From Bacteroidota bacterium (GTDB lineage: Bacteria > Bacteroidota > Bacteroidia > Flavobacteriales_F > PHOS-HE28): a stretch of 37,358 nucleotides of DNA. The notes beneath the pieces are model-generated. The model had not been told where the DNA came from. It saw only the letters and a list, made by a program, of their open reading frames with translations, and searched no databases. A program made the position numbers and the translations under genes. The stretch lies in assembly GCA_023430325.1 (NCBI GenBank), contig JAEZAU010000123.1, forward strand, positions 1 through 37,358. The letters are read 5' to 3'. Positions within the stretch are counted from its first letter, which is position 1; each line of letters begins with the position of its first letter. Shown here one piece after another: positions 2,665 through 36,803 of the stretch.

Positions 2665-2804
2665 CCATTAAGTTCTGAACAGCGTAGCGCGTAAGGAACA
2701 TGAGTGAAAAGCCCGGAAGCCTTCTTAGGCTCAGGACTTGCAACATTGGCCCGGCCCCTTTTCGTGCTGGCCCACGCCAGCGCGAAAAGGGGATACGCCC
2801 AAAA
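2665..2804 (+). repeat. Solo arm of the structured intergenic repeat family (copy C)
   Basis: Core 1 gtgaaaagcccggaag is at 2704-2719. A hairpin AGCCT-tctt-AGGCT is at 2718-2731. Core 2 caggacttgcaa is at 2732-2743, followed by ttggcccgg. A 16-bp hairpin pairs 2755-2770 with 2777-2792 (one G.U). The end motif acgcccaa is at 2795-2802. It aligns position by position with 29432-29545. The left boundary is uncertain. Confidence 0.7.
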
Positions 2805-6008: not shown

Positions 6009-6761
6009 ATGCGCCTAACATTATTCACGATCGGTCTTCTCCTGCTTGCTTTCCAAGGTGTTGGGCAGCAGACCATCTATGATGAAGCCCGTGTGCTCTA
6101 CCGGAAGGAACTTCTTGGCGGTGCAACGATACATGGTGATGGTTGGGGCGTCAATTTCTTTCACGGGAAACACCGCAATGCAAAAGATCGCCGAATGCTG
6201 GGCGTGGAGATCGTGAGCATGAAGCATCCCAAGGAGATCAAGAGCTTCAATCCCTATTACGAGGATTCACGCGGATACTTCTTCGGCAAGCAGAATTCGT
6301 TCATCATAGTGCGCCCTACTTACGGCCGCAAACACCAGATCACGGACAAGATCCGCCGCAGTGGCGTGGAGGTGAATTATGTATGGGGGATCGGTCCATC
6401 TTTGGGGCTATTGAAACCCGTTTATCTGCAGATCGGCAAACCCGATCAGTTCCCTTATGAATCCATCGCGATAGAGCGGTATGATTTCACCCAGCACAAC
6501 GTTCACAATATCTACGGCCGGGCCACCTGGTTCCGCGGGGTAGGGGAAATGAATTTCGTGGCGGGCGTTTTCGGCAAGTTCGGGTTCAACTTCGAACATA
6601 GCGGCCAGGCCGCGGGCATCAAGGCGATCGAAGTCGGGGCTACAGTAGATGCTTATCCTGAGCCGGTGCCCATCATGGCCCAGATGGAAGGGGTGAAGAA
6701 CAAAGCGCTCTTTTTCGGATTCTACATCTCGGTGCAATTTGGGAAGAAGTTCATTTCATGA
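6009..6761 (+). CDS. Secreted hypothetical protein
   Basis: Signal peptide [21 protein letters not shown]. Aromatic- and Gly-rich, possibly a beta-barrel-like composition. No catalytic motif recognised. Its stop overlaps the lipA start as ATGA (6758-6761). Confidence 0.6.
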
Positions 6762-8863: not shown

Positions 8864-10011
<1,148 letters not shown>

Positions 10012-10024
10012 TGTCGGAGAATGG

Positions 10025-21665: not shown

Positions 21666-21689
21666 GCCTTTTTACCGATCGAAATAATG

Positions 21690-21720
21690 AAAGGCCCGTG
21701 CATGCGGGCCTTTTTCTTTT
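21690..21720 (+). terminator. Rho-independent terminator of the Nif3/zinc-ribbon operon
   Basis: AAAGGCCCG tgcatg CGGGCCTTT forms a 9-bp stem (21690-21698 with 21705-21713), followed by TTTTCTTTT. It lies 25 nt after the stop codon. Confidence 0.85.
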
Positions 21721-22045
21721 GGACGTGTCCCTCCGCACGCTACGGGTCAGGCTATCCGCTGTACTCCTCCTCCCTACGGTCGTGCGGGGTGCCGCTCCTA
21801 TCCTTCACGCGCGGTGCTGGCCAGGTGATCGGTATCGATCCGTCATTCCAGGTTCCTTCTGGGATCCCGGTATCTCAAACGCGATCACGGGTTCATTGGC
21901 CGGTATGACAGGATCTGCGTAAGTGGCGCAGGCGGAAAGCCCGCAACCTCACTCCAGCCCTCTCCCGTGGAGCGGGAGCGAAGCAGAAAAAGATCATTGT
22001 GAGGACTTGCAGCCGTAGCCACGTCCTGGCAGGAATTCGCCCGAA
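21721..22045. repeat. Composite inverted-arm copy of the structured intergenic repeat family (copy A: arm A2 on minus strand at left, arm A1 on plus strand at right)
   Basis: 21912-21946 is the reverse complement of 29258-29292 with one mismatch in 35 nt. Weaker collinear similarity to the reverse complement of 29198-29545 runs along the whole interval. Shared features include cores gcggaaagcccgcaa (21932-21946) and gaggacttgcag (22001-22012), end motif cgcccgaa (22038-22045) and a left-arm stem pairing 21733-21739 with 21781-21787. The terminator at 21690-21720 may be the diverged outer hairpin of arm A2. Confidence 0.7.
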
Positions 22046-22067
22046 GCGAACGGAGAAGTGCGTTCGA

Positions 22068-27948: not shown

Positions 27949-29127
27949 TTATCCAGCGGTGGCCGATCGTTGAAAATTCGTGCTGCGCCTTGCGTTGTTC
28001 ACAGTGTTCAACATGCGCTCGAAGCTTTGCCAGAGGTCCTTGGCCGCCTTGTCCCAGGTGAACATCTCCGATCGGTGAAGTCCTGCGGTGCCCAGCCGCT
28101 GGCGCAGATCATCATCCATCGCCAACGTCTCAAGGGCCCGGGCGATATCATTCACGGAGAACGGATCGCAATAGAGCGCTGCATCGCCCGCCACTTCTGG
28201 CATGCTCGTACGATCGCTGGTGATCACGGGCACCCCGCAGCGCATGGCCTCTGCGATCGGGATGCCGAAGCCTTCGAAATAGCTCACGAAGGCAAGTGCT
28301 TCGGCGCCACCGAGCGCATGACAGAGCCTGTCCTGTTGCAGGCGTCCGGTAAAAAGGATCCTCTCCTTGTGCTTCAACTGCGCCCAGGCCTGCTTCATGC
28401 GCTCATCCCACCAGAAGCTTTCGCCCACGATCACCAGCCGGTGCGCAATGGAGGTGCGCTCAAGTACATGATCGAAGGCCAGGAGCAGGCGCGCGATGTT
28501 CTTGCGCGGATGCAGGGAACCTACGCAGATGAAATACGGATCGCCTTGTGCATACTCCCGTCGTGCCTGGTCTTTTGCCTGTGCCTGGAGCGGGGAGAAT
28601 TTTTCGCTCACCCCGTTGTAGACAACATCGATCTTTGATGGATCGATGCCGTAGGTGCTGCTGATGTCCTTCCTGGAATATTCGCTCACCGTGGCTATGC
28701 GCGTGGCATGGCGTGCGAAACGCGGAAAATAATTCAGGTAGTATTTGCTGTATGCCTTGGGCAGATCTTCAGGATGATGTTCGAAATTCAGATCATGGAT
28801 CACCGCCAGTGAAGGCACTTTGCTCTTCAAAGGCAGAAAACCATCCGGACTGATGAACGCATCGGCATCGAGCGCCCGCAGTTTACGCGGAAGCATGAAG
28901 TCGAACCAAAGCCGGTACAGCAGTGGATGGCGGGTCGGTGGGGGCAAGACCACCGCCCGCACGTTCGGGGAATAAATGAATTTGTGATCGAACTGCCGAT
29001 CGAAGATGAAGATGAATTCGTGGTCGGTATGCGCCGCCGTCATGCGCGAGAGGGTTTCATGCGCGAACCAGCCGATACCTTCGAGCTTGCCGCTCAAAAG
29101 CAGACGGGTGTTCACGGCTATGCGCAT
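27949..29127 (-). CDS. Glycosyltransferase, GT4 (group 1) family
   Basis: ORF 27949..29217. The ATG at 29127 gives MRIAVNTRLL. The C-terminal GT-B motif reads ..AFVSYFEGFGIPIAEAMRCGVPVITS (E-x7-E region). The upstream ORF extension runs into the repeat element. Confidence 0.82.
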   Translation of the reverse strand: MRIAVNTRLLLSGKLEGIGWFAHETLSRMTAAHTDHEFIFIFDRQFDHKFIYSPNVRAVVLPPPTRHPLLYRLWFDFMLPRKLRALDADAFISPDGFLPLKSKVPSLAVIHDLNFEHHPEDLPKAYSKYYLNYFPRFARHATRIATVSEYSRKDISSTYGIDPSKIDVVYNGVSEKFSPLQAQAKDQARREYAQGDPYFICVGSLHPRKNIARLLLAFDHVLERTSIAHRLVIVGESFWWDERMKQAWAQLKHKERILFTGRLQQDRLCHALGGAEALAFVSYFEGFGIPIAEAMRCGVPVITSDRTSMPEVAGDAALYCDPFSVNDIARALETLAMDDDLRQRLGTAGLHRSEMFTWDKAAKDLWQSFERMLNTVNNARRSTNFQRSATAG

Positions 29128-29197
29128 GGCCGCAAAGGTGGTGAAATGAAGAATGTGCTCCGGAGGAAAGGTGATGAAGTGGAAATTCTCATCAGTA

Positions 29198-29545
29198 TTA
29201 GGGCGAATTATCGGCAAGGCGTGGCTTCGCCTTCAAGTCCGCGGTCGCTTCGCGCCCTTGCGGGCTTTCCGGCTGCGCCACTTACGCAGATCAGCTGCAG
29301 GCCAGTATGGAACCGGTCCTTGATCCAAAAAGAACATAATATCGACCACTTGTCCTTCATGGATCGATCTGCCGATCCACATGGTCAACGCCGATCGATA
29401 TCACCGGACCTCATGCTCTGGCCATGCGCCAGCGTGTTAGGGACATGAGCGGAAAGCCCGCAAGCGAGGCTTTGCGAGTGCGGACTTGGAGCGTTGGCCC
29501 GACCCGCGCTCGCTGGAATTCCAGCGAACGCGGGTAACGCCCGAA
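29198..29545. repeat. Composite inverted-arm copy of the structured intergenic repeat family (copy B: arm B1 on minus strand 29198-~29390, arm B2 on plus strand ~29432-29545)
   Basis: B1 (minus strand): core 1 at 29257-29272, hairpin at 29243-29256, core 2 at 29231-29242, end ttagggcg at 29198-29205. B2 (plus strand): gcggaaagcccgcaag at 29449-29464, stem pairing 29458-29462 with 29479-29483, gcggacttggag at 29480-29491, hairpin pairing 29503-29516 with 29521-29534, end cgcccgaa at 29538-29545. It fills most of the 456-nt divergent GT4/flippase intergenic region. Confidence 0.75.
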
Positions 29546-29583
29546 CCACCGTTAAGAATGAAGCTGCCATCTTCGCGCCCGGT

Positions 29584-31008
29584 ATGCGGCGAACGTTCCT
29601 GACCAACCTGGCCCTGCTGCTGGTGCTCAACCTGCTGGTGAAACCCTTTTACATATTGGGTATAGATGCGGGTGTACAGGTTGCCGTAGGCGCTGATGAG
29701 TATGGTCTTTACGCGGCGCTGCTGAGCTTGAGCTTTCTGCTGAACATCCTGCTTGATGTAGGGTTGACCAATTTCAACACCCGGCATATAGCCCAGCATA
29801 CGCACCTGATCGGAAAGTATTTCAGCGGCATCATCGGCGTGCGTGTCCTGCTGGCCCTGGTGTACGCGGCAGTGACGATCGTGGCGGGGCTGCTATTGGG
29901 TTATGGTGGCCGGCAGCTCGAGTTATTGGGTGTGCTCGTGCTGAACCAGGTACTTGTGGCCACCATTCTCTATCTGCGGAGCAACATTGCGGGCGCACAG
30001 CGCTACCGGCAGGACAGTTTTTTGAGCGTGGTGGATCGCGTGTTGTTGATCGTTGGTGTCGGCTGGTTGCTCTGGTTCTCAGGTGTGCCGTTCCGGATCG
30101 AATGGTTCATCTGGGCGCAGACGGTCGCTTATTTGGTGACGTTACTTATCGCCCTTGTGCTGGTCTTGAGGTTGAGTGGCAGAGTGAAGCTGCAATGGAG
30201 ACCGGCATTCAACCTGTTGATCCTGCGGCAGAGTTTCCCGTACGCCCTGCTGATACTGTTGATGACCTTCTATTACCGAACGGATACCCTGATGCTGGAA
30301 CGTATGGCGGGTGAGCGCGAAGCGGGGATCTACGCACAGGGTTTCCGCTTCTTCGAGGCTTTGAACATGCTCGGTTATCTGTTCGCCGGATTGTTGTTGC
30401 CCATGTTCAGCCGCATGTTGAAGAACAGGGAGAAGGTGAATGACCTGGTGGCAGTGGCGCTGCGGCTGGTGCTGGCCGGCTCAGTGGCCGTGGCGATCTT
30501 TGGAAGTTGGTATTCCAATGATATCATGGAACTTCGCTACACCGAACATACCGATCGCTCCGCTGGAGCGTTCGCCGTGCTCATGTGGTGCTTCGTAGCG
30601 GTCACTCTCACTTACATCCATGGAACGTTGCTCACGGCTTCAGGCCAACTCTCCACGCTGAATTGGATCGCCGCTGGAGGTGCCTTATTGAATATTGTCC
30701 TGAACCTTGTGCTCATACCCCGTTCTGCATCGGAAGGGGCGGCATGGGCCAGTCTGGCCACCCAATGGCTCACGGCACTGGCGCAGATCTACATTGCATA
30801 TCGCATCTTTGCCCTGAGGGAGCTTTTTCCCGTGATACTGCGGGCGTTGCCTTATTTGGCGGGGCTTGCCGGATGCCTGTTCGGGCTTCAATTCCTGAAG
30901 TTGGACCTGCTTGCAGTGACCATCTTCTATTTCCTATTCTCACTTTTGTGGGCTTTCTTGACAGGCCTGTTGGGCCGCAAATACCTTCTGAATGCATTCC
31001 AAGGATGA
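29584..31008 (+). CDS. Polysaccharide flippase (Wzx-like, MOP superfamily)
   Basis: ORF 29494..31008. The ATG at 29584 gives MRRTFLTNLALLLVLNLLVKPFY. About 12-14 hydrophobic segments, and the pattern RQSFPYALLILLMTFYYRTDTLMLE is typical of polysaccharide biosynthesis (PST) flippases. The upstream part of the ORF lies in repeat arm B2. Confidence 0.8.
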   Translation: MRRTFLTNLALLLVLNLLVKPFYILGIDAGVQVAVGADEYGLYAALLSLSFLLNILLDVGLTNFNTRHIAQHTHLIGKYFSGIIGVRVLLALVYAAVTIVAGLLLGYGGRQLELLGVLVLNQVLVATILYLRSNIAGAQRYRQDSFLSVVDRVLLIVGVGWLLWFSGVPFRIEWFIWAQTVAYLVTLLIALVLVLRLSGRVKLQWRPAFNLLILRQSFPYALLILLMTFYYRTDTLMLERMAGEREAGIYAQGFRFFEALNMLGYLFAGLLLPMFSRMLKNREKVNDLVAVALRLVLAGSVAVAIFGSWYSNDIMELRYTEHTDRSAGAFAVLMWCFVAVTLTYIHGTLLTASGQLSTLNWIAAGGALLNIVLNLVLIPRSASEGAAWASLATQWLTALAQIYIAYRIFALRELFPVILRALPYLAGLAGCLFGLQFLKLDLLAVTIFYFLFSLLWAFLTGLLGRKYLLNAFQG

Positions 31009-36684: not shown

Positions 36685-36703
36685 GCCGCACATAAGATCG
36701 ATC

Positions 36704-36793
36704 AGATGATCAGAAAATCAGATGATCCCAATGCCTTAGCCTCGACTCTTCGATCGAAGGTTGAGTTCCAATTATCTGATCTTCTGATCATCT
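36704..36793. repeat. Long imperfect inverted repeat (ATCAGA-type units) between tgt and lpxD; probable tgt terminator/structured spacer
   Basis: 36704-36726 pairs with 36771-36793: 23 positions with one mismatch and one G.U. The core agatgatcagaaaatcaga faces tctgatcttctgatcatct. The 44-nt loop contains the perfect palindrome cttcgatcgaag (36748-36759). Confidence 0.7.
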
Positions 36794-36803
36794 CATTAAC
36801 TGA

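Follow-up and report, generated by a model that had tools for sequence, protein, structure and literature searches.

The stretch of DNA studied here (the window, 37,358 nucleotides) comes from a Bacteroidota bacterium (assembly GCA_023430325.1, contig JAEZAU010000123.1) and contains a GT4 glycosyltransferase gene (ATG at 29127, minus strand) and a gene for a Wzx-type flippase (wzx, ATG at 29584, plus strand), which diverge from a gap of 456 nt. A prediction made earlier from the sequence alone had given the same divergent starts and the same gap, and had described within it a composite two-arm element of about 348 nt. Two inverted arms are indeed present; however, they do not form a composite, being units of 92 nt (B1) and 114 nt (B2) that together take up 206 nt of the gap. 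Each is a separate copy of the Flavo-1 RNA motif (Rfam family RF01705), and the two are placed head-to-head. Both lie on the strands originally proposed, B1 ending with AATTCGCCCTAA 70 nt from the GT4 ATG and B2 ending 38 nt 5' of the flippase ATG. B1 reads CTGCGTAAGTGGCGCAGCCGGAAAGCCCGCAAG...GGACTTG...AATTCGCCCTAA and its 3' side hairpin is degenerate; B2 reads GCGTGTTAGGGACATGAGCGGAAAGCCCGCAAG-hairpin-GGACTTGGAGCGTTGGCCCGACCC-hairpin-GGGTAACGCCCGAA, its variable 3' hairpin (29503-29534) being the second hairpin that the original prediction had recognized in this arm. The 5' ends of the arms are separated by 142 nt of unique DNA, outside the repeat family, in which each arm is preceded, 12-20 nt upstream, by a CTGGCC motif. 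Database gene calls run the GT4 open reading frame (ORF; 420 versus 392 amino acids) and the flippase ORF (514 or 527 amino acids) into the arms (29128-29217 and 29494-29583; also 8358-9941 in L126/L127, contigs of a relative described below), and these extended starts are probably annotation artefacts.

A scan of the 37-kb window with a covariance model built from 44 sequences (R1) detected five copies, B1, B2, A1, A2 and C, the next best match reaching 17 bits (the positions and scores of all features are given in Table 1). The match is far beyond chance, and B1, A1 and A2 were found by R1 without having been used to build it; a second covariance model, R2, scored B1 at 51.6 bits. A1 and A2 also form a head-to-head pair (pair A), with a spacer of 102 nt, and C is single. 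The spacer between B1 and B2 showed no similarity to the pair A spacer or to any other part of the window. Searching the window against itself by BLAST, followed by multiple alignment, delineated four related stretches (B1, B2, A and C) and two subtypes: type I (A2 and B1) reads GATCTGCGTAAGTGGCGCAGSCGGAAAGCCCGCAA ... GGACTTG ... AATTCGCCCNAA, and type II (B2 and C) reads GYGTWAGGRACATGAGYGRAAAGCCCGSAAG ... GGACTTG ... TTGGCCCGRCCC, followed by a long hairpin and ACGCCCRAA. The arms of the GT4-wzx gap thus belong to different subtypes. A 35-nt block is common to B1 and A2 at 97% identity, the subtype of B2 is also found in four other loci (L037, L075, L115 and L119), and the window contains the core CGGAAAGCCCGCAA three times, where chance would give 0.31.

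All five window copies align to the Flavo-1 consensus hairpin with its conserved internal loops (ccGAUuGaAGcGG ... AgCGgAaAGCggGA), and the Rfam consensus, ccGAUuGaAGcGGAAauCC...GauUguAgCGgAaAGCggGA, corresponds to the outer part of their architecture. At Rfam gathering scores, neither the window nor the elements of 16 loci gave a match. In permissive searches, A1 matched RF01705 over the full model with 27.9 bits (the gathering score is 42), and B1, B2, A2 and C gave no match to this family even at E <= 10. Other matches of the arms at permissive E-values were to miRNA hairpins only, at chance level, and a tRNA/tmRNA search of the window found none. Two copies on viral contigs, found with the outer motif, pass the Rfam threshold (L173, 59.2 bits; L133, 51.6 bits) and R1 matches both; thus, the low scores elsewhere reflect a narrow, AT-rich seed that under-scores GC-rich copies. 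Moreover, the original alignment (Weinberg 2010, PMC2864571) already holds the inner subtype GGAAAGCCC...GAGGACUUG, for example in Flavobacterium johnsoniae (NC_009441/2016697-2016781, GCGUGAGGGAUAGAAGUGGAAAGCCCGCAG..GAGGACUUG..AACGGAUAGCCCGACCC, also given as GCGUGAGGGAUAGAAGUGGAAAGCCCGCAG...GUGCGAGGACUUGUAACGGAUAGCCCGACCC). When one genome per species (185,579 species) was scanned for the motif CGGAAAGCCCGCAA-N(8-38)-GGACTTG, more than 119 loci were present among the matches listed, where about 8 are expected by chance by our estimate. Nearly all are in Bacteroidota, including Pedobacter, Niabella, Foetidibacter, Limnovirga, Flavobacterium, Chryseobacterium, Hymenobacteraceae and many metagenome-assembled genomes of Flavobacteriales, and some genomes gave several loci.

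The copies share one architecture, a rod of 90-130 nt: a closing helix (P1, GCGUG/CACGC) is followed by stacked short helices with purine-rich internal loops, a near-invariant core (CGGAAAGCCCGCAA...GGACUUG) and a variable apical hairpin, and the 3' part consists of a variable side hairpin and a CCCAAA tail. P1, the 3' side hairpin and the tail fall outside the Rfam model. The helices are supported by covariation, GGG/CCC alternating with GCG/CGC and CGG/CCG in one of them. RNAalifold reported compensatory changes in 9 of 21 pairs and, when 129 matches were aligned to R1, 17 of the 21 pairs were changed on both sides. In these 129 copies, 95.9% of the paired cells were complementary, versus 78.9% in shuffles and 24-48% with slid partners; the alignment was fitted to R1, so these figures lean toward structure, but the margin is still large. 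Folding energies were less uniform. B2 and C fold better than shuffled sequences (z = -3.5 and -4.6), mainly owing to their long side hairpins, and B1, which has lost this hairpin, A1 and A2 do not (z between 0 and -0.7, B1 being at -0.7). Being inverted copies, the two arms of the gap would pair into a long fold-back (z = -7.5) on a single strand that covers both (366 nt). The active strand could not be deduced from wobble pairs, since G-U (36) is as rare as A-C (40) once one pair is set aside, nor from folding energy (p = 0.21). One helix-end pair is G-U in 78 of the 129 copies on the assigned strand, which is also purine-rich.

The original prediction had proposed to compare the same intergenic region in related strains. 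We fetched orthologous loci via GT4 homologues, from relatives at 99, 80, 72 and 69% identity and from two others. In the strain at 99% identity, metagenome contigs carry both arms and stop at their edge or within them, a usual effect of repeats on assembly (the arms lie at the contig ends, L120 1-77, L121 2-92 and L122 117-208). The 80% relative (identity of GT4; contigs L123, L126 and L127) is syntenic over 21 kb, with genes for Wzy, two Wzz proteins and the flippase on one side of the gap and for GT4, RNase HII, DUF3352, TrkH and TrkA on the other. Over this whole locus it has a single element, the counterpart of B2 (86.6 bits), of the same subtype, in the same orientation and about 40 nt 5' of the flippase ATG. 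It lacks B1 and the spacer, the 5' end of its element lying about 46 nt from the GT4 ATG, and in L126/L127 the whole of pair A is absent as well, trkA being followed after 3 nt by a convergent ABC-transporter (MlaF-like) gene. Pair A sits exactly at a break of synteny (window 21666-22067 versus L126 17065-17069), the place of the ABC-transporter gene being taken in the window by zinc-ribbon and NIF3 genes. The wzx-side copy is degraded in the 69% relative (L128), where the outer parts are intact and the inner domain is different (15.7 bits), and it is reduced to a 3'-end remnant in the 72% relative (L124); in the two remaining relatives the gene neighbourhood is different and the element is absent. 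The best reading of these comparisons is that B2 would have stood upstream of wzx for a long time, and that B1 and the spacer would have been added later, in this lineage, upstream of the GT4 promoter.

We also examined where the two divergent transcripts might begin. The original prediction had reported no TAnnTTTG motif between the arms and the start codons, and had argued that both transcripts must either start inside the element or carry an arm as their leader. No exact match exists anywhere in the gap; however, a box with one mismatch, CACCTTTG, lies just before the GT4 ATG, downstream of B1. It is conserved as (C)ACCTTTG directly 5' of the ATG in six of seven GT4 orthologue loci, including element-free loci. 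Elsewhere in the window, the start codons at 6009, 24524, 27205, 36656 and 20829 have an exact box 10-50 nt ahead of them, indicating that the organism uses Bacteroidota-type promoters with leaders that are very short or absent. The conserved box suggests that the GT4 promoter lies downstream of B1, and GT4 would probably be transcribed from it without B1 in the transcript. On the flippase side, CATCTTC (full block CATCTTCRC, CATCTTCGC in the window) is invariant between the window, L123, L128 and L124, the last with only a remnant of the element, but it matches the -7 box poorly, and we recognized no clear promoter box between B2 and the flippase ATG. B2 may thus be carried in the wzx leader or lie just upstream of it. 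The argument that each transcript involves an arm is therefore contradicted for GT4 both by this candidate box and by the absence of B1 in the 80% relative, and may hold for wzx.

We next considered the family as a whole, as the original prediction had suggested a regulator of surface-polysaccharide genes. The flanks of the loci (about 830 kb) contained about 28 extra copies, and the window holds five in 37 kb. Altogether, 125 neighbouring proteins matched 139 Pfam families, none of which was matched more than twice, and the 25 families listed included no transposase and showed no polysaccharide enrichment. For orientation, 126 copies lay between two called genes (the gene calls were crude, taking the longest ORFs and barring them from crossing elements). 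Convergent regions contained 44 copies versus 24.5 expected from the number of regions, divergent regions 23 versus 23, and tandem (same-direction) regions 59 versus 78.5, i.e. a 1.8-fold enrichment in convergent regions (departure from expectation, p = 4e-5). Tandem regions showed no sense bias (22 sense versus 37 antisense, p = 0.07). A role in regulating polysaccharide genes thus finds no support at the level of the family.

Close pairs (less than 300 nt apart) follow a strict rule: all seven (the two window pairs, L027, L029, L089, L095 and L108) are arranged 5' end to 5' end, and in the six that were compared (all but L029) the arms are of unlike subtype. Head-to-head pairs are mostly found between convergent genes. 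Their geometry means that each arm of any such pair points at a flanking gene, and the arm-to-gene pointing noted in the GT4-wzx gap, although described correctly, follows from it. Wider head-to-head pairs enclose ORFs which, judged by eye and with no family search, include a putative PIN toxin-antitoxin pair, a TPR-like protein and unknowns, and no transposase was recognized among them. Three further ideas were discarded. That type I always inserts beside an older copy does not hold, as three of five are paired and two metagenome copies are single; insertion next to terminators is not supported either, the 3' flanks showing no extra hairpins (p = 0.12); and pair A and the L027 pair are not orthologues, their flanking genes being different. 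An A-rich extension of the tail was seen in the 3' flanks of 22 of 143 copies.

The other window copies stand in varied positions. A1 (GCGTGAAGGATAGGAGCGGCACCCCGC...CAGCGGATAGCCTGACCC...) lies between convergent genes, A2 ends 22 nt from the trkA stop codon, and C is antisense to both of its minus-strand neighbours, a POTRA-domain gene and an L,D-transpeptidase gene. C has a long hairpin at the position equivalent to that of B2, different from it, as originally noticed. An intrinsic terminator 3' of the zinc-ribbon gene (21688-21722, plus strand; GGCCCGTGCATGCGGGCC, then a T-run) merges through its T-run with the A-rich tail of A1 on the opposite strand. Other features of the window sequence were recorded. 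GATC occurs 594 times versus 143 expected (4.15-fold), CTAG 8 times versus 143 (0.06-fold), and TTAA and TATA are at 0.16- and 0.21-fold of expectation; a cluster of five GATC sites in the spacer between B1 and B2 was discarded as a special feature, given this roughly 4-fold excess throughout the window. Tandem 7-nt units (AATTCCT / GATTCCT / GATTTCT) occupy 9911-10022, between two genes, and a 26-nt inverted repeat (36701-36726 and 36771-36796; 88% complementary, ATCAGATGAT-rich) lies upstream of an lpxD-like gene.

Copies of the family are also present on contigs classed as viral. Nine Microviridae genomes (L170, L143, L147, L150, L151, L160, L161, L163 and L166), which encode capsid protein F, a pilot protein and Rep, have one copy each, on the packaged coding strand and about 22 nt upstream of rep. 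Their stems are kept by compensatory changes, seen at 6 of 25 pairs, and on the packaged strand a single stem contains three G-T wobble pairs. Another copy (GGAAAGCCCACAG..GAGGACTTG) lies between a KAP-family NTPase gene and a gene for the anti-restriction protein ArdC in L157, and also in L149, L153, L155, L159, L162, L172 and L174; these contigs, classed as viral, look more like a conjugative element.

Table 1. Coordinates of the Flavo-1 copies and of the promoter-related motifs, in the window unless another contig is named.
Feature	Position	Strand	Remarks
Arm B1, Flavo-1 family, type I	29198..29289	-	92 nt; R1 48.5 bits, E 3e-10; not in R1 training set
Spacer between the 5' ends of the arms	29290..29431		142 nt, unique
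Arm B2, Flavo-1 family, type II	29432..29545	+	114 nt; R1 82 bits, but in R1 training set
Box CACCTTTG, one mismatch to the Bacteroidota -7 box TAnnTTTG	29133..29140	-	5 nt from GT4 ATG, downstream of B1
Block CATCTTCGC	29568..29576	+	7 nt before flippase ATG, downstream of B2
A1, classical Flavo-1-type copy, left arm of pair A	21718..21812	-	R1 58 bits, not in training set
A2, type I copy with long inserted hairpin, right arm of pair A	21915..22045	+	R1 49.7 bits, not in training set
C, single type II copy	2687..2803	+	R1 57.4 bits, but in training set
Exact TAnnTTTG boxes	5988, 20771	+	
Exact TAnnTTTG boxes	24568, 27223, 36684	-	
Microviridae copy	L170 1784-1865	-	equivalents in the eight other genomes named in the text
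Copy between KAP-family NTPase and ArdC genes	L157 4316-4397	-	also in the seven other contigs named in the text

All together, these results suggest, with a probability of about 0.6, that B1 and B2 are dispersed structured repeats, similar to repetitive extragenic palindromic (REP) sequences and bacterial interspersed mosaic elements (BIMEs) or to MITEs (miniature inverted-repeat transposable elements), rather than dedicated regulators of GT4 and wzx. The family would resemble such repeats in its many intergenic copies with unrelated neighbours, its neutrality to the gene strand, its enrichment between convergent genes, its gain and loss, and its 5' to 5' pairing. At the locus itself, B2 would be long-standing upstream of the flippase gene and B1, with the spacer, would have arrived later upstream of the GT4 promoter; the GT4 transcript would start at the CACCTTTG box and leave out B1, and the flippase transcript would perhaps include B2, perhaps not. 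The fold would then be kept for the spread or upkeep of the element itself as a single strand, RNA or DNA, and not for the regulation of GT4 or wzx. Several observations weigh against this explanation. The examined copies showed neither a transposase nor a target-site duplication nor a clean empty site, so that it is presence and absence alone that suggest mobility. The loops are conserved across four Bacteroidota orders and the stems are kept by compensatory change, which is more like a cellular function than a usual selfish repeat, and single-stranded DNA (ssDNA) phages keep a copy with compensatory changes, suggesting a useful fold. The position and orientation of B2 are kept in the 80% and 69% relatives, which also fits a local role. 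The orientation counts are approximate, coming from crude longest-ORF calls, and the promoter assignment combines a one-mismatch motif with its conservation. Lastly, the Bacteroidota subclass 2.6 of REP-associated tyrosine transposases (RAYTs) is reported in the literature to have its own, different REPs.

If the arms were instead local cis-regulatory elements, acting as promoters, 5' leaders or a regulatory fold present in sense in the GT4 and wzx mRNAs, one would understand why both are sense to the adjacent gene, why the gap has no exact TAnnTTTG and why B2 has counterparts in the 80% and 69% relatives that keep its orientation and lie about 40 nt 5' of the flippase ATG. The long fold-back of a 366-nt transcript over both arms, and the coincidence of several mapped 5' transcribed regions of Flavobacterium psychrophilum with Flavo-1 matches (PMC9723704), would fit as well. 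We nevertheless consider this unlikely: in the 80% relative B1 is missing, while the box near GT4 and the surroundings of its ATG are unchanged; in the 72% relative the proximal CATCTTC block is still there although the element on the wzx side was lost; and A1, A2 and C lie either downstream of their neighbouring genes or antisense to them. A 5' leader would be expected in sense and in front of a defined gene class, but the family shows neither a sense preference nor a link to polysaccharide genes, and in F. psychrophilum the matches are sense or antisense to transcribed regions alike, many of them being untranscribed (PMC9723704). This last observation also bears on the view under which Rfam files the family, namely independent small RNA genes with their own promoter, the structured RNA of about 100 nt acting in trans or bound to protein. 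Flavo-1 was rated a likely RNA, not cis-regulatory, when it was described (Weinberg 2010, PMC2864571), and the covariation, the purine-rich conserved loops and the variable-length hairpins are typical of functional RNAs; the frequent helix-end G-U pair on the assigned strand points in the same direction. However, no conserved promoter or terminator flanks the copies, the upstream flanks being unrelated across genomes, some head-to-head pairs have spacers of 10-41 nt that leave no room for two promoters, and outside that one pair neither wobble pairs nor folding energy favours a strand. We thus find small RNA genes very improbable.

The phage copies raise a different possibility, in which the element is a ssDNA site used by the host or by mobile elements for priming, as an origin, for recombination or as a substrate of an HUH-type nuclease, the chromosomal copies being its dispersed form. 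The same fold occurs in Microviridae, upstream of rep, and beside ardC, which is typically carried by conjugative elements, whose transfer takes place as ssDNA; thus it could be a site of this kind recognized by the host. The Microviridae copies, with their constant strand and compensatory changes, suggest a single-strand role, and the lack of gene-strand bias fits a role at the DNA level. However, capture of a host repeat, as described for MITEs in viruses (PMC11602168), could equally account for these copies. The window copies alternate in strand (+ - + - +) and have no uniform orientation to a replication fork, no HUH gene was seen beside any copy among the families reported for the neighbours, and the REPs of RAYT subclass 2.6 differ, being short, species-specific hairpins. 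A ssDNA site is therefore a doubtful explanation in our opinion. It could be combined with the dispersed-repeat explanation: Flavo-1 might correspond, in Bacteroidota, to REP/BIME and have a real role as single-stranded nucleic acid (priming, origin, recombination or nuclease site) and with head-to-head pairs of unlike subtype as the working unit, a speculative proposal to which we give a low probability.

For the locus, the dispersed-repeat explanation implies that the large "element" of the divergent promoter region is repeat DNA of a generic kind, and that, unless transcripts are mapped, it should not be taken for a switch dedicated to the capsule or O-antigen. The copies also matter for annotation, because the GT4 and flippase ORFs are called into the arms and assemblies break at them.

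Compared with the REP, BIME and REPIN (REP doublets forming hairpins) elements of Proteobacteria, the family shares high-copy, intergenic palindromic units that are enriched at gene 3' ends or between convergent genes, inverted pairs, gain and loss between strains and neutral orientation to genes. However, REPs are hairpins of 20-40 nt with a GTAG or CGTC foot and are species-specific, whereas the present elements are multi-helix structures of 90-130 nt, have no such foot and keep their loops across the phylum. Unlike in REPINs, the arms of a pair are of unlike subtype, so they do not form a self-complementary doublet. REPs also have a cognate RAYT transposase, whereas no Y1_Tnp domain was present among the 25 families listed for the 125 flanking proteins; no link to RAYTs was found, the subclass 2.6 REPs in the literature being unrelated short hairpins. 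A GCTAGCC-GCGCGGCGATTGCGCGCC hairpin, which resembles the GCTAG-footed REPs reported for this subclass, lies about 45 nt upstream of a Flavo-1 copy in L136 (around 550-600) and at equivalent positions in L137 and L139. MITEs (Correia/NEMIS, ERIC, RUP, BOX) are likewise intergenic fold-backs of about 100-150 nt that can sit in 5' or 3' untranslated regions, sometimes alter the expression of a neighbour and are also present in phage genomes (PMC11602168). In the present elements no terminal inverted repeats were found beyond P1 and the tail (ends of the type TTTsGCGTG...CACGCCCAAA), with no flanking direct repeats seen by eye and no target-site duplication or parent insertion sequence found; and the typical range of MITEs is a genus, whereas the present family is conserved across orders.

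With Flavo-1 (RF01705) the copies share the outer sequence and structure (GCGUGAGGGAUWGNAGCGG ... AGCGGAWAGCCCGACC), the restriction to Bacteroidota, the multicopy state and the lack of a tie to particular genes or of a known function. The difference lies in the Rfam model, which scores A1 alone among the five window copies and misses the GC-rich copies in the 16 loci. We found no description of head-to-head pairing or of presence in Microviridae in the literature that we read or searched. The new elements here, a modest novelty, are thus the GC-rich members, the fuller description of the element, the head-to-head rule and the phage copies. For a motif whose role has been open since 2010, this adds a closing helix, a side hairpin, a tail and a model that covers GC-rich copies across four orders, together with three testable leads: the enrichment between convergent genes, the strict head-to-head rule for adjacent copies and the conserved copies of ssDNA phages.

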